IMG/VR virus record: IMGVR_UViG_3300021431_000076
Span: 256,001 to 320,000 of that record
Origin: a virus
Taxonomy: Duplodnaviria; Caudoviricetes
Strand: one strand, 5' to 3'
DNA length: 64,000 nt
Shown here: positions 2,826 to 24,064 of the stretch, piece after piece
Numbering within the stretch: position 1 is the stretch's first letter
Layout: each line of letters opens with the position of its first letter
Position numbers and translations under genes: made by a program
Notes under the pieces: model-generated
The model's database searches: none
Told to the model about the DNA's origin: nothing
What the model saw: only the letters and a program-made list of their open reading frames with translations

Positions 2826-3317
2826 ATGGTATTAGTATATTCTATTCCTATAGTGGTAACTCCAGTAAACTATTCTTTTAGTAAAGATAAATCTCATTAT
2901 GGAGCATTTGAACACAATGAAGTGTATTGCTCTATGCTTACTAAAGAATATGAACAAGTAGTTCCAAATCTTAAAAATATTGGGGTAAATGAAACTAATT
3001 ACTTAACAGATCCTGATAGATTAGTAGGCACTAGAATATTTACAGATCTTGGTGTTCATGGTGATGGTGATATATTTGATTATAGTATGAAAGATAGCAT
3101 TACTATCTATAAATTCCCTGAGAATACATCTATATCTTCTACATGGTTATATTTAGTTCCACAGAAAGATGAAGTAACTGATGAAGAGATAGAAACAGAA
3201 ATAGATAAAGTATATAATGATCTTCTTAATGATGGTCCTATTGATAATGCTATAATTGAAAATCATCTAAAATACTTAGAAGTTCTGGCAATATCAGCTA
3301 AGAATAAGTTTATCTAA
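2826..3317 (+). CDS. hypothetical phage protein
   Basis: SD AAGGAGG. Confidence 0.65.
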   Translation: MVLVYSIPIVVTPVNYSFSKDKSHYGAFEHNEVYCSMLTKEYEQVVPNLKNIGVNETNYLTDPDRLVGTRIFTDLGVHGDGDIFDYSMKDSITIYKFPENTSISSTWLYLVPQKDEVTDEEIETEIDKVYNDLLNDGPIDNAIIENHLKYLEVLAISAKNKFI

Positions 3318-3323
3318 TATAAT

Positions 3324-3353
3324 AATCCCCTAGAGCATATTCTCTAGGGGATT
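3324..3353. terminator. terminator hairpin
   Basis: AATCCCCTAGAG/CTCTAGGGGATT perfect inverted repeat. Confidence 0.7.
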
Positions 3354-3365
3354 GACTTTTTAATA
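3354..3365 (+). promoter_or_regulatory. late-type phage promoter GACT-N6-TA
   Basis: matches the NAC(A/T)-N6-T(A/G) motif recurring before structural operons. Confidence 0.5.
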
Positions 3366-3400: not shown

Positions 3401-3856
3401 ATGCCTGATACTAGAAAGGGTTATAAAGTTCCTGCTACAGTTATCCCAGGACATGATTCTTTTCCTGTAGTAGATTCTAATGATGTTGCAGGAAATATTA
3501 TGTTTTTTGATTCTCCAGATAAGCTTACTACTATTCCTGCTTCTAAGCGTAAATTAGGTATGTTTGTTTATATATCTAATGAAGGAAGACACTATAAGCT
3601 TATCAATAATAAAGCTGTTTTAGATGCTTCTTGCTGGGAACCATACGAATTAGTAAGCAAAGATTATATTGATAATGTGACTAGCAATTTTGTTACTAAA
3701 GAATCATTTGAACAAATAATTTCTTCTATTCCTAAAACACAAAGTAAATCTTTTGCAATAAATGAAAATACTACATACCCAGCTTCATTTGAAATTGAAT
3801 TACCAGAAGGAGCTTCAATAGTTCAAGTAAATGCAATAGCTGAAATAGATGAATAA
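3401..3856 (+). CDS. putative virion (tail fibre/decoration-type) protein
   Basis: FPVVDSNDVAG...IPASKRKLGMFVY segment resembles modules common in phage fibre proteins; late-type promoter. Confidence 0.45.
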   Translation: MPDTRKGYKVPATVIPGHDSFPVVDSNDVAGNIMFFDSPDKLTTIPASKRKLGMFVYISNEGRHYKLINNKAVLDASCWEPYELVSKDYIDNVTSNFVTKESFEQIISSIPKTQSKSFAINENTTYPASFEIELPEGASIVQVNAIAEIDE

Positions 3857-6607: not shown

Positions 6608-7267
6608 ATGAAGTTGATTGTAGTAGTAGATTTACAGAATGAATTCCTTGGTTGGCAACCTGAAGAGATTAAGAAATCTCTTCCAAAGAAAGTGGTGGAT
6701 TATCTAAAAAATCAAATGGAAAAGAGTGATCATACAAGAATAATATGTACTCGTGATACACATCTTGAAAAAGATTATAATGAATATTTTGAATCTTGGA
6801 CTTATCCAATTCATTGTGTTCGTGGTACTTGGGAATGGGAATTAGCAGATGAGCTTGAGGCATTCATGAATGATAGAGCCTATAAAAAGTGCTGGGTAGT
6901 CAATAAACCTACTTATGGAGACTATTCTGATATACTGGGACTTAAAAGACTCTTTAGATGGGAATTTGACGAAATTGAAGTAGTTGGTCTTACAACAGAT
7001 ATTTGTGTATTGGCTACTATGGTTATGCTCAACTGCCTATTCCCTAAAGCAGAATTATCTGTTATTGATGAGCTTACTTATGGTACTTCTGAAGAGAAGA
7101 AACAGCATGCTTATCAAATAATTAATTCTATGGGATTCCATATCAAGACACTTCAGGGATTTGATTATAATACTCCTGAAGCATGGGAAGATGAAGCTAT
7201 CGAAAATAAAGTTATTGATAAGTGTTTTGAGATGGCTGACAATCTTAAAGAGAAGGATGATGAATAA
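6608..7267 (+). CDS. pncA: nicotinamidase / isochorismatase-family cysteine hydrolase
   Basis: VVDLQNEF, TRDTH, PIHCVRGT, NKPTYG and GLTTDICV motifs (D-K-C triad with metal ligands). Confidence 0.8.
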   Translation: MKLIVVVDLQNEFLGWQPEEIKKSLPKKVVDYLKNQMEKSDHTRIICTRDTHLEKDYNEYFESWTYPIHCVRGTWEWELADELEAFMNDRAYKKCWVVNKPTYGDYSDILGLKRLFRWEFDEIEVVGLTTDICVLATMVMLNCLFPKAELSVIDELTYGTSEEKKQHAYQIINSMGFHIKTLQGFDYNTPEAWEDEAIENKVIDKCFEMADNLKEKDDE

Positions 7268-9870
7268 TGAGAAAAATGATCATCATGAGGGGCTTACCTG
7301 GTTCTGGTAAGTCCACATGGATTAGACAACATGACCTAGAGGACTATACTCTATCTCCTGATAATATTAGAAAGATTGTTGCTAATCCTGTCATGAGAAT
7401 AGATATTCCATACTTCACTGTAGATCAGACTAGAGATTTCATTGCATGGGGTATTCTGTTTGATGTTCTGGAGCAGAGAATGCAGAGAGGTAACTTTACT
7501 GTTATTGATGCTACAACTCTTACTGCAGACCAGTTCAATAGATATAAAAAGCTTATTGAGAGATATAAGTATAGAGCATTGATAGTAGACTTTACTGATA
7601 TGCCTCTAGAAGAGATCAAGAAGCAGAATGCAGAAAGAGCTAATACAGTAGGTTATGTTCCTGAATGGGCTATTGATAGGCTCTATACCAGATGGGAGAA
7701 TACTGAAGAGTTTATTAAGTCTAATAAGTTTAAGATTATTAAGCCTACCGACTTCTATGAGTTTGATAAGTTCATGTCTATGAAACCTCTTCAGCTAGAT
7801 GAAATGGGTTTCAAGAAAGTAGTATTCATTGGTGATATTCATGGTTGCTGGTCTGCATTGAATAACTACTTTAAGGATACTACTCCTAATGATCATCCTG
7901 ATACATTCTATATATTCTTAGGTGATTATTTGGATAGAGGCCCTGAGAATGTGGAGACTTTCAAACACTTATACGATTGGAGGGAATGCAAGAACGTCTT
8001 ATTACTGCAAGGTAATCATGAAGATCATTGGAAGAATTTTGTTCATGATAATATACCAGATGATGCTTATGAGAAGATTGATTTCTTTAAAGAAACTCTT
8101 CCTCAGTTAACTGAAGCTGGTATCACTAAGAAAGATATCGCTAGATTAGCTGATAGACTTGGTCAGTGTGCTTACTTGCAGAATAAGTTTACTCAAATTT
8201 TAGCTACTCATGCTGGTATCAATGGTATGATTAAAACTTATGAAGATGGTAAGAAGATAGCTACTAGCTTCTATGATTCTTATTTCCTTACTAAGATGAA
8301 TACCTATCAAATGGTACATGGTGTTGGTGGATATGGTGATGTAAATAAGATTGCTGAACAGTGGGAAGAATTCATCAATGTTTCTAAAGGTCAAATCAAA
8401 GGTGGAGAATTCAAATTCTACCAAATCTTTGGTCATAGAAATGATGATAAACTTCCTGTTCAAGTATCTGAACATGTCTTCAATTTAGAGGGTGGAGTAT
8501 CTATCCTTCTCAATGAGAATGCTAGACTTAGAATAGTAGAGTATGATGTTGAGAATGATACTATGACTCCTGTGGAGGTCATAAATCCTAAGTGGAATAT
8601 AGGTTATGAGAATACTCCTAATCCTCATACTGCTCTTATCAAAGATAGAATGATTAGAGCTAAGGGTCTTATCAATGTGAAGAGATTGCATGATAATGTA
8701 TGTGCATTCAACTTCTCTCATGATGCTTGGTATTCTAAAGGGTGGAATAGTCTTACTTGTACTGCAAGAGGATTGTTCATAGACGTGGAAAAGAATGAAG
8801 TAGTTGCTAGATCTTACGATAAGTTCTTCAATTACAAAGAAAGAAGAGAGACAAAAGATCTTGATCAGATGCTTAGACATATCAAGTATCCTGTAAGTGT
8901 ATATGAAAAATATAATGGCTTCCTTGGTATTCTTTCTACATACAATGGAGAATTACTGTTTTGCAGTAAGTCTGAGGATCATTTATCCACTTACAAGAGT
9001 AATAGCGATTATGTACCTCCTCTTGGTAAGAAGATTGAGTATGCCATTAAGGATGGTCTGCGGGCTATTATCCCAAAAGAGAAGCAAGAAAAGTTAAAGC
9101 ATTGGTTTGATGAGCATGAATATTATTCCATGTCTAGAATAGTAAATAAACATCTTATCGACCATAGACAACCATCTAACTGCATGGCTCTTCTCTTCAA
9201 AGAGAACTTTGAAAAGCTTGTTCCTATAGAAACTCAGGAGAAGATTAAGAAGTTCTTACTAGAAAAGAACTGCTCTATGCTATTTGAAGTAATTGATCCT
9301 GAAAGAGATCCTCATATCGTTGTATATGATAAACCTAGAGTAGTATTACTTGATATCGTATATAATGATATTGAGAAGCCAGCAACTCTCTTCAGTTATA
9401 AGAATCTGCAGAATCTAAATAATGGTGTCTTCCATATTGATCTCAAAGAGCAAGTAGAAGTCATTAAAGATGAAGAACATTTTAGAGCATTTGTAGAAGG
9501 ATTCTATGGTTCTACTCATCTTAACAAAGAAGGATTTGTATGTAAAGATGCTGAAGGATTCATGCTCAAGTTCAAGACAGCAGATTATAAGTTCTGGAAA
9601 TGTATAAGAACTATGCTTGATAGTATCAATGATAGTGAGTATGGAGCTGTTCCTACATTCAAGCATACTTGTCCTTACTTATCTGCTGAATTTGATTCTA
9701 CTGTGGTTCAATACTATAGTGAAAAGTTTGATAATCTACTAGAATTCTTATTAGAAAAGTTTGGTCAAGAGAGAAGAGATGAACGTATAATATTACCTCC
9801 TAACTTCTTAATCAAACCAGATGGTAGTAGATACAATCTTATCGAAATTCGTAAAATGGCAAACATGTAA
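7267..9870 (+). CDS. polynucleotide kinase / metallophosphoesterase / RNA ligase (Rnl1-type) RNA repair enzyme
   Basis: GLPGSGKS and VIDAT kinase; GDIHG, GDYLDRG, GNHE phosphoesterase; ARGLF..VVARSYDKFFN, EKYNG, EGFV and LKFK ligase motifs. Confidence 0.88.
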   Translation: MRKMIIMRGLPGSGKSTWIRQHDLEDYTLSPDNIRKIVANPVMRIDIPYFTVDQTRDFIAWGILFDVLEQRMQRGNFTVIDATTLTADQFNRYKKLIERYKYRALIVDFTDMPLEEIKKQNAERANTVGYVPEWAIDRLYTRWENTEEFIKSNKFKIIKPTDFYEFDKFMSMKPLQLDEMGFKKVVFIGDIHGCWSALNNYFKDTTPNDHPDTFYIFLGDYLDRGPENVETFKHLYDWRECKNVLLLQGNHEDHWKNFVHDNIPDDAYEKIDFFKETLPQLTEAGITKKDIARLADRLGQCAYLQNKFTQILATHAGINGMIKTYEDGKKIATSFYDSYFLTKMNTYQMVHGVGGYGDVNKIAEQWEEFINVSKGQIKGGEFKFYQIFGHRNDDKLPVQVSEHVFNLEGGVSILLNENARLRIVEYDVENDTMTPVEVINPKWNIGYENTPNPHTALIKDRMIRAKGLINVKRLHDNVCAFNFSHDAWYSKGWNSLTCTARGLFIDVEKNEVVARSYDKFFNYKERRETKDLDQMLRHIKYPVSVYEKYNGFLGILSTYNGELLFCSKSEDHLSTYKSNSDYVPPLGKKIEYAIKDGLRAIIPKEKQEKLKHWFDEHEYYSMSRIVNKHLIDHRQPSNCMALLFKENFEKLVPIETQEKIKKFLLEKNCSMLFEVIDPERDPHIVVYDKPRVVLLDIVYNDIEKPATLFSYKNLQNLNNGVFHIDLKEQVEVIKDEEHFRAFVEGFYGSTHLNKEGFVCKDAEGFMLKFKTADYKFWKCIRTMLDSINDSEYGAVPTFKHTCPYLSAEFDSTVVQYYSEKFDNLLEFLLEKFGQERRDERIILPPNFLIKPDGSRYNLIEIRKMANM

Positions 9871-10498: not shown

Positions 10499-10581
10499 AA
10501 AGCTACATTTATGCAGACTAATATTTAGAACAGTTATATACTATATACATGTAAAGTTTAAACGTATAGGAGGTTTGTATT

Positions 10582-11283
10582 ATGGCTACTAAAGAAGTGC
10601 TTACTATTGCTCAGATTATTGCTGAGTGTAAGTCTACACAAAATAAAATCTTCACTGTCATTGGTGATAGAGATTTTCGTCTAGTAGAATATTATATTAA
10701 GGCTAAGCCTTATATTGGTGCTCGTAACATTGCAGAAGAAGAAGAAAGAATCACTTCTGATGCTGATAAGATCTCTGATCTTATGGTTCGCCTTGATGCT
10801 CTTACTAAAGCTCGCATTAAGGCTAATGCTGAAACTATGGTTAAAGTTCCTGAGCAGCTTTCCCTCAAAGATCTCTTTGCAGGTAAAGAAGCTAAGGTAG
10901 AAGAGATCAGCATTGCTGAAGCTATTAATCGTAAGAAGTACTATATAAACTTCATGAAGTCTATTATAGCTAACTTCGAACGTCAGCTTTCTAATGCATC
11001 TTCTCGGAAAGGTCAGCTTGAATATGAGGCTGCTAATCTTGTCAATCATGACCTTGACCAGCAGTTCCCTCGCGATGTTCAAAAGAACTGGTCTACGGAT
11101 GCACAGAAAAAAGCTCGTGAAGAGCTTGAAAAGAAGTATGAAGTAGTTCGTCTTGATCCTAAAAACATCATTTCGAATGACTCTATTAATAAGCTCAAAA
11201 CTTCGGTAATGGACTATATTGATAAGATAGATACTACTCTGTCTATCATTAATGCTAAGACTGAAGTCACCATTGAGTACTAA
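10582..11283 (+). CDS. alpha-helical coiled-coil protein (resembles DUF6847/DIP1984-like hypothetical proteins), candidate RNA-binding oligomer
   Basis: LTIAQIIAE, SIAEAINRKK, LDPK and IDTTLSIINAKTEVTIEY pattern; own early promoter at 10535; frequent CGT/GCT codons suggest high expression. Family assignment is from memory, not a search. Confidence 0.6.
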   Translation: MATKEVLTIAQIIAECKSTQNKIFTVIGDRDFRLVEYYIKAKPYIGARNIAEEEERITSDADKISDLMVRLDALTKARIKANAETMVKVPEQLSLKDLFAGKEAKVEEISIAEAINRKKYYINFMKSIIANFERQLSNASSRKGQLEYEAANLVNHDLDQQFPRDVQKNWSTDAQKKAREELEKKYEVVRLDPKNIISNDSINKLKTSVMDYIDKIDTTLSIINAKTEVTIEY

Positions 11284-11287
11284 TATC

Positions 11288-11995
11288 TGATAAGTTTATT
11301 GCTTGGGAGACCAAAATATAAAATCAATCAACCCTTTTCTTTACTTGAGAAGTTGGTTCTTTTGGGGTTATAAAAGAACTTAAATTCTCTTAATGAATTC
11401 TTTAGAAAAAAAGAATCAGCGACTCATAATCGCTACATAATAAGGCAGATAAAGCAACGATCTTTTAAATCGTGTTAGCTTATCACATCTGGCATTAATA
11501 TAAAGATATGCCACCAGGAGACTTTAAACCTTTAAAGATTTAAATTTATAAAGTCTAAACTTTTAAACCTTTAAAAAGCCCCTCCAGAATTGACAGGCTC
11601 ATATAGATACCTAATAGCAAAGGGGCACTTTAACTTTATAAACTTTTATAAACGATTGGCAATAATATAATTTAAAACTTCCAATCATTATAAACCTTTA
11701 AAGATTTAAACTTATAAACCAAATCCTATACTAGCAACACTGTTACTCGAAGAGGGTCACTGAGGTGTTTGATTGACCTCAAATATCAGTTATAGGTGAT
11801 TAACCTGAGCATAAATTTATAAATAAAATGAGATTGCAATTTATTATCATCTTTGTAGCGAATCAAATGCTGCATGGTAGCTACGGTAATTTTTCCAGAA
11901 CCTAGCTCTAGTTTACATTTAAATTTAATCTCATTGATTTGCCGTTAAATTAAATTATTGATTGGATGGCAAAGTCGCGTAACTTAAAAAATCAT
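11288..11995 (+). ncRNA. putative large structured ncRNA with internal AAA-periodic repeat tracts
   Basis: no ORF of 60 aa or more over about 760 nt; more than 10 stems; 5-prime TAAGTT (11291) can pair with 3-prime AACTTA (11981); terminator directly after. Confidence 0.7.
11521..11723 (+). repeat. three tracts of about 8-nt (NNNNT-AAA)n repeats
   Basis: 11521-11577, 11627-11652, 11687-11723; exact 20-mer TAAACCTTTAAAGATTTAAA at 11525 and 11691. Confidence 0.8.
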
Positions 11996-12000
11996 ACACT

Positions 12001-12048
12001 AAATACAGGTAGACTCCTTGTGAGTCTACCTGTATTTTTTCTTTTTTT
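12001..12048 (+). terminator. intrinsic terminator
   Basis: AAATACAGGTAGACTC/GAGTCTACCTGTATTT plus long T-run. Confidence 0.85.
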
Positions 12049-12105
12049 CAAGCATATATTATAGTAGTGATGAATGAATGTATTAAAAGAAAGGAAGGAT
12101 TCATC

Positions 12106-12450
12106 ATGATGGAAAACAAAGTAGTCGTAAACCTCTGCCCGCATCCGATTAACATTATTGCTTCTGATGGGAGCATCCGTAACTTTCCTAAATGTGAGGT
12201 ACCTGCAAGGGTATCCCAGTCTGAGGAAGTGGTTGGAAACATCCTTGGGGTGGAAATCACTCGCCAGAAGTTTGGCAAAGTTGAAAACCTTCCCGAGCCA
12301 CAGGAAGGTACTTATTTGGTTGTATCTCGCCTGGTTGTTGCGGCAGCTCAGGCAGAAGGGAGGGATATATCTGATCTGCTAATTCCTGGTCCTGGTGTAC
12401 GGGACGAAGAGGGACGGATAATAGGAGCCAAAGGCTTCTCCGTCCTGTAA
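12106..12450 (+). CDS. small conserved-looking phage protein (NLxPHxI...DLLxPG..VRDxxGRIIG), function unknown
   Basis: SD AAGGAAGG; own promoter and GGGGCTTCGGCCCC terminator; visibly GC-richer than neighbours. Confidence 0.7.
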   Translation: MMENKVVVNLCPHPINIIASDGSIRNFPKCEVPARVSQSEEVVGNILGVEITRQKFGKVENLPEPQEGTYLVVSRLVVAAAQAEGRDISDLLIPGPGVRDEEGRIIGAKGFSVL

Positions 12451-14443: not shown

Positions 14444-15868
14444 ATGGATCCTAATACTATTAAAGTTCTATCTACAGAGGATCTTATCAATAGATTTGGA
14501 AGAACTGATTTATTACCTATACAGATAGATAGAGATTTCTATAAGAAAATGAGAACTAACTTAGTTGTACCTTCTACTAATCAATCATTCTCTATGGTAG
14601 TAGAATATATGACTAAATGGTTTTATGATAAATTCCCAGAGAAGTTCTTTAGAACTAAATATCTAGAAGCATCTCATATAATGGATTCATTAAGATCTAT
14701 AACACAAAAACAATTAGTAGGAAATGTAAAACCTGCAGCTACTATTGTGGCTGATCTAGATATGTCTTATACTAGAGAAAATCTAGACCTATATAATATG
14801 GGTATGCTCTTATATCAAAATAAATGCCATTATAAGGATGCCTTTTTTATAGATAGAGACAAACATCTCTTTGTTTCTCTTGCTACTGAATTGATACTGA
14901 TGAATTTTACCTTTAAGATAAGAGTGGATACTAGATCTATGCAAATTGATGTAGCTAAAATGTGTCAGTTAGCATTTAGAGCTGGAGGATCAGAGAAGCA
15001 TTATAATGATATAGACTTTCCTATTCCTAATGAGTTAATAATGCAAATAGCAGATGATGCTGGTTTTTGTCCTTGTACTTGTATGATGGATAACATTGAG
15101 TTGATGAAATACTTAAACTCTCATTCCAAACTACCATTCTTCTACAAACTAAATACTGCTACACAAAATATGGAATGGTTCATTAAGATTCCCCAATCTA
15201 TAATACATATCAAAGTAGGAGATGTACAGATTGGTTCTGGTATAATGAAAGGAATGATTAATGTTGACCATGATATTACATTTGATGCACAAGTTAGGTT
15301 CCCAGCGCCTAAGTTCTATGCGTATTACTCTATTATTGCTAGAGAAAACGTTAAGTCTATACATCAAATCAGCTCAGGTATGTATATACAGACTGTTACT
15401 AACCTATCTAGAGTTCCAGAGAAAGATGAGCATGGATGGCAATGGACAGTCCATACCGAATATGCTTTTAATGAAGAAAAAGAAATTGATGATATCAAAC
15501 ACGGAAGATATGAAGGATTAAAGATCTGTTTTGATGAGTTAATAGGAGATCTAAGAACAGTAATAGATTATACTAAGTCTATTGCTATATCTCCAGAGGT
15601 ATTCTTAAATATAAGGCTCTATAGTTTTGATAAGTTGGTTAAGACTCATATAGATTGGCAGACTTATACTATTCATATAGATGAACCTATAGAGTCTGCT
15701 AATTGTTATCTGATTATCTATATGGATAATAATTATATGAATGAACAGATATCCAATATTAAAGAGTATAGTAAGAATAGAATACAACCATCTGATAATC
15801 AGATTGGTCCTAATATAACTCCTAGAACAAGAACTCCTCAGTCTTCTAGTAGTTTAAGTAATCTATAG
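14444..15868 (+). CDS. probable virion structural protein
   Basis: 474 aa; late-type promoter CACA-TTCATA-TA at 14413; no enzyme motif recognised. Confidence 0.5.
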   Translation: MDPNTIKVLSTEDLINRFGRTDLLPIQIDRDFYKKMRTNLVVPSTNQSFSMVVEYMTKWFYDKFPEKFFRTKYLEASHIMDSLRSITQKQLVGNVKPAATIVADLDMSYTRENLDLYNMGMLLYQNKCHYKDAFFIDRDKHLFVSLATELILMNFTFKIRVDTRSMQIDVAKMCQLAFRAGGSEKHYNDIDFPIPNELIMQIADDAGFCPCTCMMDNIELMKYLNSHSKLPFFYKLNTATQNMEWFIKIPQSIIHIKVGDVQIGSGIMKGMINVDHDITFDAQVRFPAPKFYAYYSIIARENVKSIHQISSGMYIQTVTNLSRVPEKDEHGWQWTVHTEYAFNEEKEIDDIKHGRYEGLKICFDELIGDLRTVIDYTKSIAISPEVFLNIRLYSFDKLVKTHIDWQTYTIHIDEPIESANCYLIIYMDNNYMNEQISNIKEYSKNRIQPSDNQIGPNITPRTRTPQSSSSLSNL

Positions 15869-23215: not shown

Positions 23216-23219
23216 AATA

Positions 23220-23450
23220 ATGGATATAAAAGAAGACTATGAAGAATTAGAAAAGTCATATAGTAATTTTCTAGATCATCTATTTCAATTACAGAAAAAT
23301 TGTAATGATAAGATGACATTTCTAGAAAGTTATACTATACGACTTCAGATAAATACTATTGGTAATTCTATGAAATCTATTAGAAATGTATTAGGTAATT
23401 ATATTACTAGAGAGAATGGTATATATGATAAAAGAAGAAGTATTGAATAA
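23220..23450 (+). CDS. hypothetical protein
   Basis: SD AAGGAG. Confidence 0.55.
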   Translation: MDIKEDYEELEKSYSNFLDHLFQLQKNCNDKMTFLESYTIRLQINTIGNSMKSIRNVLGNYITRENGIYDKRRSIE

Positions 23451-23643
23451 TATGAGTAAAGAAGAGCTTATAAAAAAGATTAGAGAATTAGAAGAAAAGA
23501 ATGAAATACTAGAAATAAGAGTCAATAACTATTCTAATTCATATTTCTCTATATTATATACTCTAGATAATATACTTCAACAAACAGGATATAGAAGAAT
23601 GACAGATGTATCTAGAATATCTTCAAATAACTTCTATATGTAA
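23416..23643 (+). CDS. small coiled-coil protein
   Basis: MSKEELIKKIRELEE segment; start uncertain. Confidence 0.5.
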   Translation: MVYMIKEEVLNNMSKEELIKKIRELEEKNEILEIRVNNYSNSYFSILYTLDNILQQTGYRRMTDVSRISSNNFYM

Positions 23644-23756
23644 ATCTAGTATAATAAGAGTAGAGAATATTCTCTACTCTCTATTTTTTGTAAAGTAAAA
23701 ATTTTTTCAGTTATATACCATTCCTATGAGTATGAGTTCGAGGAGGAATAGTTAAA

Positions 23757-23909
23757 ATGAATAATGAATATACCAAAGAGAGTTTAGAAAAGTTATCTAA
23801 AAAAGAATTGATATCTATTATTTTAGAATTACAAGAAGAATATGAAGAGTTAGATAAAGATTTTACAGAATATATGGATAATGATCCATTTTCTAATTTA
23901 TCTACTTAA
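23757..23909 (+). CDS. 50-aa coiled-coil protein not in the ORF track
   Basis: early promoter 23712, SD GAGGAGG; MNNEYTKESLEKLSKKELISIILELQEE, similar to ORF 23416. Confidence 0.65.
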   Translation: MNNEYTKESLEKLSKKELISIILELQEEYEELDKDFTEYMDNDPFSNLST

Positions 23910-24064
23910 GTATAAAAAGTATACTCTAAATAGAGTATACTTTTTTTGAGTAAAAAATTTTTTAGTTATATACTATTCTATTGAGTGTGAGTGTGAGAGA
24001 GGTATACTCTCTACACCTCATATTCATATATCTAATTTATTTTCTACTAAAGGAGTTTTGTTAC

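Follow-up and report, generated by a model that had tools for sequence, protein, structure and literature searches.

A phage locus predicted to pair a DIP1984-like protein with a conserved, doubly knotted RNA carrying phased short repeats

The stretch of DNA analyzed here (hereafter, the window) comprises 64,000 nucleotides (nt) of a virus of the Caudoviricetes, positions 256,001 to 320,000 of IMG/VR record IMGVR_UViG_3300021431_000076, a record of 332,775 bp that is rated as complete by CheckV. We describe a locus of this window in which the gene of a 233-amino acid (aa) protein is followed, 16 nt past its stop codon, by what appears to be a structured RNA containing short repeats of fixed period. 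Coordinates are those of the window unless another locus is named, and related loci from other phages carry L numbers. The outer features of the locus are the following.

10537..10547, plus strand: promoter-like motif TATACTATATA, of the pattern TATAYTATAKW, 35 nt 5′ of the start codon (motif-level evidence)
10568..10573, plus strand: ribosome-binding site AGGAGG, as read from the sequence, 8 nt 5′ of the ATG start codon
10582..11283, plus strand: gene of the 233-aa helical protein (open reading frame; phrog_1491; T5.085 / PVP-SE1 gp082 family; DIP1984-like fold; modelled homodimer)
11812..12000, plus strand: unconserved 3′ tail that separates RNA and terminator, 56% identical to L001
12001..12048, plus strand: intrinsic terminator with a perfect 16-bp stem (12001-12037), a 5-nt loop, and a T run

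An initial annotation of this DNA had read a promoter, the protein gene, a long stretch free of open reading frames (ORFs), and a strong terminator at this place, and all four were recovered, the promoter at the level of a motif. The gap of 783 nt between the 233-aa gene and the next ORF of at least 90 aa (start 12067) is the longest in the window, followed by one of 765 nt at 23216-23980. Positions 11284-11965 hold no ORF of at least 50 aa, and each of the six frames of 11284-12066 contains 20-24 stop codons, with all three stop kinds present, so that no reassignment of stops opens the gap; a hidden coding region under another genetic code was thus ruled out. The TATAYTATAKW pattern, which may be a promoter element of the phage, has 12 copies in the window compared to 4.5 ± 2.1 in shuffled sequences, and most of these copies lie ~10-70 nt 5′ of ORF starts (10537, 12055, 12500, 13740, 28103, 48992, and 61599). 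A further copy that precedes an ORF start lies at 23550 (+). The copies at 10537 and 12055 flank the gene and the gap, with none between 10547 and 12055. The terminator is the strongest terminator-like site of the region, is 96% identical to that of the sister phage L001, and has a similar stem in L002. Since one promoter-like motif and one terminator bracket the gene and the gap, the two look like a single transcription unit.

To delimit the RNA within the gap, we compared the locus with that of L001, whose protein is 96% identical. The gene itself is 93% identical and the core at 11296-11815 is 91% identical, with values of 98% and 95% for its 5′ and 3′ domains, respectively, whereas the tail at 11816-12000 shows only 56% identity. 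Because the tail has diverged while the core has been kept, the conserved element corresponds to a closed RNA of ~512 nt on the plus strand, at 11300-11811, and not to the 700-nt domain initially proposed. The helix thought to close that larger domain (11291-11302 with 11977-11986) lacks its 3′ partner in L001, and the true closure is a different helix, which we call P1. Most of the other stems listed in the initial annotation exist; those at 11356-11379, 11725-11796, and 11761-11781 are conserved, while those at 11827-11935 and 11936-11976 are not. The scaffold of the RNA consists of these features.

11300..11307, plus strand: closing helix P1, 5′ strand UGCUUGGG, pairing with 11804-11811
11325..11331, plus strand: pseudoknot PK2, 5′ strand CAAUCAA, pairing with the Hk loop UUGAUUG at 11769-11775
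11330..11335, plus strand: pseudoknot PK1, 5′ strand AACCCU, pairing with the H2 loop GGGGUU at 11364-11369
11356..11379, plus strand: hairpin H2, GUUCUUUU / AAAAGAAC (5′ arm as DNA, GTTCTTTT), whose loop forms PK1
11386..11518, plus strand: variable region with lineage-specific hairpins at 11397-11416, 11418-11434, 11448-11484, and 11490-11513
11725..11796, plus strand: three-way junction of the 3′ domain, made of Px, Py, a hairpin with a GAAGA loop, and Hk
11725-11730 with 11791-11796, plus strand: Px, CCTATA/TATAGG, conserved and covarying on the model-fitted alignment
11740-11742 with 11787-11789, plus strand: Py, part of the 3′ domain
11745-11757, plus strand: hairpin with GAAGA loop, part of the 3′ domain
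11761-11781, plus strand: hairpin Hk, TGAGGT/ACCTCA, whose loop forms PK2; covaries on the model-fitted alignment
11804..11811, plus strand: closing helix P1, 3′ strand CCUGAGCA, where the conserved RNA ends

The closing helix and both pseudoknots are supported by covariation on a plain alignment of 10 sequences. In P1, 98.8% of the alignment cells are paired and 4 of the 8 pairs show compensatory changes; one G.U pair is kept in 9 of the 10 sequences, which places the RNA on the plus strand, as the initial annotation had argued from G-U pairs in general. PK2 is re-formed with different letters as CUUAUCAA/UUGAUAAG in L008, UAUUUAG/CUAAAUA in L013, and UCAAAUUAG/CUAGUUUGA in L016. PK1 likewise reads ACUCC/GGAGU in L002 and AAUCUU/GAGGUU in L008, and in L013 its strands have exchanged purines for pyrimidines (AGGAGA/UCUCUU). 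On plain MAFFT columns PK2 is 88% and PK1 76% paired, figures that are conservative because the columns are off by one for L013, L015, and L016 in both pseudoknots. Taken over P1, PK1, and PK2 on the plain alignment, 10 of 19 pairs covary. Duplexes between cognate strands were also more stable than those between non-cognate strands, with −13.1 versus −8.5 kcal/mol for P1 (2 of 5000 permutations as good), −7.4 versus −4.6 kcal/mol for PK2 (4 of 5000), and −5.0 versus −3.0 kcal/mol for PK1 (13 of 5000), counts that are not true probabilities since the lineages are related. Hairpin H2 is kept as GAUUCUUUU/AAAAGAAUC in L005, and a different stem occupies the same place in L008 and L010; as its columns are inconsistent between subgroups, H2 was excluded from the formal pair count. 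The stems of the variable region are present in the window and L001 and could not be aligned in other lineages.

The 3′ domain was evaluated on an alignment fitted to its own covariance model, R1, so that the following figures lean towards that model. Pairing reached 93.3%, while shuffles gave 72% and sliding the partners against each other gave 34-48%; 12 of 18 pairs had changed on both sides, and the covariation score was 0.638 versus 0.246 (0 of 500 shuffles). The match to R1 in the window, of 109 bits, is the sole one in the genome. At E ≤ 1 R1 recovered the seed clade and L015 only, missing L022, L023, L026, and L031, and homology in those distant clades therefore rests on the protein and the shared architecture. 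Relative to shuffles, folding was better on the plus strand (z = −4.1) than on the minus strand (z = −2.6). Together, these comparative data, all drawn from sequence, argue that the RNA is real, doubly knotted, and conserved in structure.

Between the variable region and the 3′ domain lies a series of octads organized in tracts.

11521..11577, plus strand: repeat tract 1, 7 octads nnnnUAAA
11578..11626, plus strand: hairpin between tracts 1 and 2, GCCCCU / AGGGGC
11627..11653, plus strand: repeat tract 2, 3 units, 100% identical to L001
11654..11686, plus strand: hairpin between tracts 2 and 3, GAUUGG / CCAAUC, in the window and L001 only
11687..11722, plus strand: repeat tract 3, 4 octads

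The 14 octads are thus distributed over three tracts (7, 3, and 4) that are parted by two G+C-clamped hairpins, and the first of these hairpins carries a compensatory change in L001 (GCCCUU/AAGGGC) despite the 96% identity of the proteins. In tract 3, a 28-nt block duplicates 11525-11552 at 96% identity. The tetranucleotide TAAA occurs 21 times in the element compared to 10.6 ± 2.4 times in dinucleotide shuffles, a 2-fold excess, and 8 pairs of TAAA are exactly 8 nt apart where 0.2 are expected (0 of 1000 shuffles). The design of the tracts persists in all lineages, while the sequence of the unit is lineage-specific, being yUUUAAAC in the window, CUGAUAAn in L016, CUAUUAAC in L023, UUAAUCn in L026 and L031, UGUAA in L022, and nnnnAAA in T5 and PVP-SE1. 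The period follows the length of the protein: it is 8 nt with proteins of 232-243 aa (window, L002, L005, L008, L010, L013, L016, L022, and L023) and 7 nt with proteins of 212-221 aa (L026, L031, the T5 relative, where it is mostly 7, and PVP-SE1). The lineage-specific units and the link between period and protein length would both fit co-evolution with a specific binder.

We then examined whether the gene and the RNA stay together in other phages. The set comprised the window, L001, L002, L005/6, L008/9, L010, the P0019 contig, and L013-15, with homologues at 44-97% identity from rumen and gut metagenomes (contigs of 209-352 kb) and IMG/VR relatives at 35%; at the DNA level, blastn against deposited phages gave zero matches. 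Past every homologue with readable downstream DNA, 709-855 nt are free of genes, and alignment of these stretches revealed three conserved blocks with variable parts between them. This bears out the expectation of the initial annotation that homologues (here, 35-97%) would be followed by a long, covarying non-coding region with A-rich periodic repeats. P1 starts 7-17 nt past the stop codon in all lineages except L016. There, an inserted 92-aa ORF (L016 3229-3507) lies between gene and RNA, and the closing helix starts 7 nt past the stop of that ORF, which is the only break in adjacency seen.

Adjacency of gene and RNA holds down to 27% protein identity. In distant homologues (27-31%; IMG/VR phages of ~53-66 kb and ~227-290 kb) the order is kept as gene, closing-helix strand ~10 nt past the stop, structured 5′ part, phased units of 7 or 8 nt, 'AAAUCC', and junction. 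A closing helix that starts no more than 20 nt past the stop and has its partner 350-520 nt downstream was found in the window, in L026 (3171-3184 with ~3512-3525), and in a T5 relative, where 11 bp form between 3152-3162 and 3491-3501. In the latter phage the element occupies an unannotated 442-nt gap past the gene, with the 3′ junction again present along with ~10 A-rich units. Covariation of PK1 and PK2 was seen in the window's own clade and also in L013 and L016. Given this linkage, the shared bracket of promoter-like motif and terminator, and the short distance from stop codon to RNA, comparative genomics lends good support to a dedicated pair of protein and RNA that is probably co-transcribed. 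The pair is not unique to this phage, which carries one branch of a very wide family. Thus, of the dedicated ribonucleoprotein (RNP) put forward in the initial annotation, the pairing of gene and RNA stands, and the extent and closing helix of the RNA needed to be redrawn.

The protein matches phrog_1491 over its full length (E = 2e-18; residues 7-232 against profile positions 5-210 of 211), and tblastn relates it to gp082 of Salmonella phage PVP-SE1 (2e-5). A profile search at E ≤ 1e-3 returned 787 clusters at 50% identity, and with the PVP-SE1 homologue as a bridge the family was found in 749 cultured phage records, including T5-like phages, Vequintavirinae, and Bacillus, Vibrio, Pseudomonas, and Lactococcus phages. 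Clusters of the family in the ESM Atlas include bacterial members, and a profile search of bacterial genome contigs with the close-family alignment found no relative. Both phrog_1491 and most family members in RefSeq/GenBank are labelled 'tail fiber protein', a label without support here, where the gene sits among tRNA and early-type genes.

An AlphaFold2 (AF2) model of the protein (pLDDT 88) consists of long helical hairpins packed on a small sheet. The only outstanding structure match is 3kdq (DIP1984), with a VIA-align Z of 11.4 (root-mean-square deviation 6.0 over 152/152 residues; next match, 7.3), a value that helical folds can reach without kinship. Foldseek also ranks 3kdq first (E = 4.6e-3), and TM-scores of 0.52/0.69 were obtained with an Atlas cluster that bears the name DIP1984 and has DUF6847 in 36% of its members. 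At the level of sequence, the window protein has zero Pfam or NCBIfam matches; PF20935 (DUF6847) was not matched by it or by 12 close relatives at E ≤ 1, and was touched weakly by 2 of 45 distant relatives (best E = 0.0019). The likeness to DUF6847/DIP1984 noted in the initial annotation therefore holds for the fold and not for the sequence, and the models support a shared DIP1984 / DUF6847 fold for a protein that does not belong to PF20935 by sequence. Modelling of two copies, which that annotation had recommended, gave an ipSAE of 0.67 compared to 0.00 for the best control, with at least 95% of contacts the same between runs and a pLDDT of 87; the binding mark, which the model passes, is reached by 20 of 30 proteins solved as one-chain pairs but also by 1 of the 23 that were solved as single chains. 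This result supports, and does not show, a symmetric homodimer. The conserved residues R117-K118 lie outside the modelled interface.

No known RNA family accounts for the element. Rfam gave 0 matches at the gathering threshold in the whole window, and at E ≤ 10 over 11200-12120 it returned 9 chance-level rows with no RAGATH-19, RAGATH-27, GOLLD, ROOL, OLE, or raiA among them, so that the region matches no unrelated known family; such a match was what the initial annotation had named as a possible refutation. ARAGORN found 0 tRNA or tmRNA genes in the window and Rfam likewise none. In contrast to this, RAGATH-19 (RF03096; gathering threshold 85.6 bits) matches L026 3217-3360 with 116 bits, L024 with 75, and L031 with 53, and corresponds to the 5′ third of the element in this clade of ~53-66 kb phages; it is unmatched in the window, L013, L016, L022, L023, and T5. 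RAGATH-27 (RF03100) is matched neither in the window (E ≤ 10) nor in 10 related loci (E ≤ 0.5) nor in the T5-relative gap (E ≤ 1), a gap with zero Rfam matches of any kind at E ≤ 1. Only fragments of the element are thus catalogued, as orphan motifs, and none of them matches the window. We found no publication on the pair in the literature on RAGATH-19, T5 stable RNAs, phage structured RNAs, or DIP1984/DUF6847.

The surroundings of the pair relate it to tRNAs and RNA repair. Same-strand tRNA genes lie past the RNA in L024, L026, L027, L030, L031, and PVP-SE1, in arrays of up to 13 genes (one tRNA in L030, 9-13 in the ~53-66-kb relatives), and true tRNAs are embedded in the variable part of the RNA in L016 (3672-3757) and L018 (1112-1187 and 1202-1276). 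A T-arm-like fragment was seen at the same place in L023 (~3320-3365). The element also occurs without downstream tRNAs, in the window, L002, L005, L008, L010, and L013. Two genes upstream of the pair, at 7267-9870 (+), the window encodes an 867-aa polynucleotide kinase-metallophosphatase-T4-type RNA ligase (PHROG 'RNA ligase', 7e-170). L002, L005, and the P0011 contig share the order of an isochorismatase-like gene, the 867-aa enzyme, a small ORF, and the pair, and RtcB is a neighbour of the pair in Dulem virus 39. Since the RNA heads or contains tRNA genes in relatives and stands near an RNA-repair enzyme here, the likeliest role of a particle would be one in the handling of the tRNA pool.

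Further observations concern the flanking genes. The small ORF at 12067-12450 (+), directly past the terminator, has a G+C content of 0.47-0.50 compared to ~0.30 around it and may therefore be a recent acquisition; its PHROG matches are all of unknown function. A 474-aa protein encoded at 14444-15868 (+) lacks Pfam matches, is 48% identical in L013 and L022, and is thereby more conserved than the 233-aa protein. In large-phage clades its gene is invariably found shortly downstream of the RNA, and it probably belongs simply to the core genes of these phages; the single-sequence AF2 model of the protein (pLDDT 34) was unusable. In L024, the gene upstream of the pair contains a sub-threshold match to a group I intron at 765-922 (32 bits, E = 1.7e-4).

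Based on these results, we propose the following working for the pair. One transcript would give rise to both the helical protein and the ~512-nt structured RNA. P1 would join the ends of this RNA, and its 5′ strand would be knotted to the H2 loop through PK1 and to the loop of the 3′ junction through PK2, yielding a compact scaffold that holds out the ~14 A-rich 8-nt units. Several copies of the protein, modelled as a dimer, may then bind with about one binding site per unit. That protein copies do bind the evenly spaced units and thereby build a defined protein-RNA particle is, in our judgement, an evenly balanced proposition. Such a particle may have its place among the functions of phage tRNA clusters and serve to manage or safeguard the pool of tRNAs in the infected cell; this role, or one in counter-defence, is the weakest step. 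The full proposal, an undescribed class of phage RNP in which DIP1984-like dimers sit one per 7- or 8-nt unit on a pseudoknot-closed RNA ring, present in hundreds of phages including T5 relatives and directed at the tRNA pool or against host defences that target tRNA or RNA, is tentative and stands at somewhat less than even chances. Co-transcription, protein-RNA binding, stoichiometry, and the tRNA-related role are what we infer from the patterns above.

Several points weigh against this proposal. The protein has no recognisable RNA-binding domain, and its sole fold relative, 3kdq (DIP1984), has no known function, none having been found in the literature on DIP1984/DUF6847. The correlation between period and protein length may reflect one phylogenetic split. 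The core of the unit, UUUAAA, is self-complementary, so that a duplex between tracts 1 and 3 (27 nt, 81% complementarity) could form in place of single strands, an objection limited to this clade since the units of other clades are non-palindromic. The whole 333-kb phage has one tRNA gene, Arg-tct (G000 C1:132161-132235, minus strand), ~134 kb from the locus, and a role with tRNAs therefore cannot depend on linked tRNAs. Codon bias is ordinary in the gene (effective number of codons 34.6 versus a median of 35.6, rank 88/246), with G+C at third codon positions raised to 0.31 versus 0.20, and gives no support to very high expression. Finally, transcription, a stable RNA, and binding are predictions at this locus.

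As an alternative, the RNA might work by itself, in the manner of the GOLLD/ROOL cages, with the protein being only a conserved neighbour or a folding helper. A phage-encoded RNA in tRNA islands, with embedded tRNAs and multiple pseudoknots, matches the context of GOLLD and ROOL (PMC12286853), and a protein without a detectable RNA-binding domain would be in line with it. However, the gene-RNA adjacency is fixed (7-17 nt spacer) to 27% identity, while GOLLD and ROOL have no such neighbour; the phased, single-stranded, lineage-specific units resemble binding sites more than tertiary contacts; and there is no Rfam match to GOLLD or ROOL even at E ≤ 10. We consider an RNA acting alone fairly unlikely. 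The element could instead act in cis as a leader or 3′ untranslated region, with binding to the repeats feeding back on the mRNA of the protein or gating read-through towards the genes that lie downstream, which in relatives are tRNA arrays, in the way of TRAP at the trp leader. Its position after the protein gene and ahead of the tRNA arrays in L024, L026, L027, L031, and PVP-SE1, the strong terminator that follows the RNA in the window, and the resemblance of the periodic repeats to the 11 triplets of TRAP, by analogy, all speak for a regulatory role of this kind. The repeats, however, are enclosed in a knotted domain, with the terminator ~190 nt downstream past an unconserved tail; no conserved alternative antiterminator pairing was found, and the element is kept in phages that have no downstream tRNAs. 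A cis-acting element is accordingly an unlikely account.

A different possibility is that the RNA, alone or together with the protein, is a decoy whose A-rich units soak up a host RNA-binding factor or an endoribonuclease of a toxin or anticodon-nuclease defence. Phages use tRNA repair (T4 Pnk/Rnl1) and tRNAs against tRNA-cleaving defences, and the element sits with tRNA-repair and tRNA genes; the unit sequence also shifts between lineages, as that of a target-matched decoy might. Yet this case is circumstantial and leaves the conserved partner protein unexplained, and we know of no host factor with a 7-8-nt register, for which reasons we give a sponge little credence. Lastly, the repeats might act as DNA, in the form of iterons, a centromere, or an origin to which the protein from the adjacent gene binds, with the stems incidental. 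The sites of plasmid partition and replication do contain arrays of 7-8-bp direct repeats flanking inverted repeats, and the region at the locus is A+T-rich. Against a DNA site, the G.U pairs through which the flanking domains covary would turn into A.C mismatches on the opposite strand, covariation is seen in long-range helices and in pseudoknots between loops and strands, the plus strand folds better than the minus strand relative to shuffles, and no shift in skew occurs at the locus; such a site is very improbable.

Should the protein and the RNA indeed form a particle, it would represent a widespread and uncharacterised phage machine, the protein of which is present in the 749 cultured phage records and mostly mislabelled as a tail fiber protein. 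As the family occurs in T5-like phages, among the oldest model groups, its function is directly testable. The orphan Rfam motif RAGATH-19 would then be a fragment of a larger knotted RNA, and the pair would be a protein-dependent counterpart to the RNA-only GOLLD/ROOL cages in the same tRNA-island context. The phased 7- or 8-nt units would make this a rare natural RNA that may measure out protein copies. Because the public catalogues searched miss the version in the window, annotation pipelines leave 0.5 kb blank.

Among known systems, the RAGATH-19 clade has an element designed as in the window, with periodic units and a 3′ junction inside a closing helix. The RAGATH-19 model itself describes an orphan candidate sRNA of unknown function with 141 positions, which is part of the closed element and has no partner protein recorded, and the units of that clade measure 7 nt whereas those of the window measure 8. 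For the protein, the comparison is with DIP1984 / DUF6847 (PF20935; 3kdq), from which the phage protein differs in length, exceeding 3kdq by ~80 residues. ROOL was originally discovered in samples from the rumen. GOLLD and ROOL are phage or prophage RNAs of 500-800 nt and unknown function, often near tRNA islands, with multiple pseudoknots and sometimes with tRNAs embedded in their variable part (PMC12286853; PMC5737381), and they have no fixed protein neighbour (PMC12286853). Unlike the pair described here, they are RNA-only cages with neither a dedicated neighbouring protein gene nor phased short repeats. The ring of TRAP reads 11 triplets of the trp leader, and the nucleocapsid protein of negative-strand RNA viruses takes 6-9 nt per protomer. 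By analogy of mechanism only, the ~14 units of fixed 8-nt period, in a loop whose ends are tied by a scaffold, would resemble these systems; there is no shared sequence or fold, the knotted scaffold is found only in this RNA, and binding here is proposed from sequence. Ro-Y particles are formed by Rsr and YrlA, encoded next to rtcB, and their non-coding RNA is closed at its ends and sometimes bears tRNA-like modules. The phage protein is not of the Ro/TROVE type, and the sole YrlA match was weak and lay over true tRNAs in L022; the two systems are alike in combining a dedicated protein with an end-closed structured non-coding RNA beside RNA-repair enzymes.

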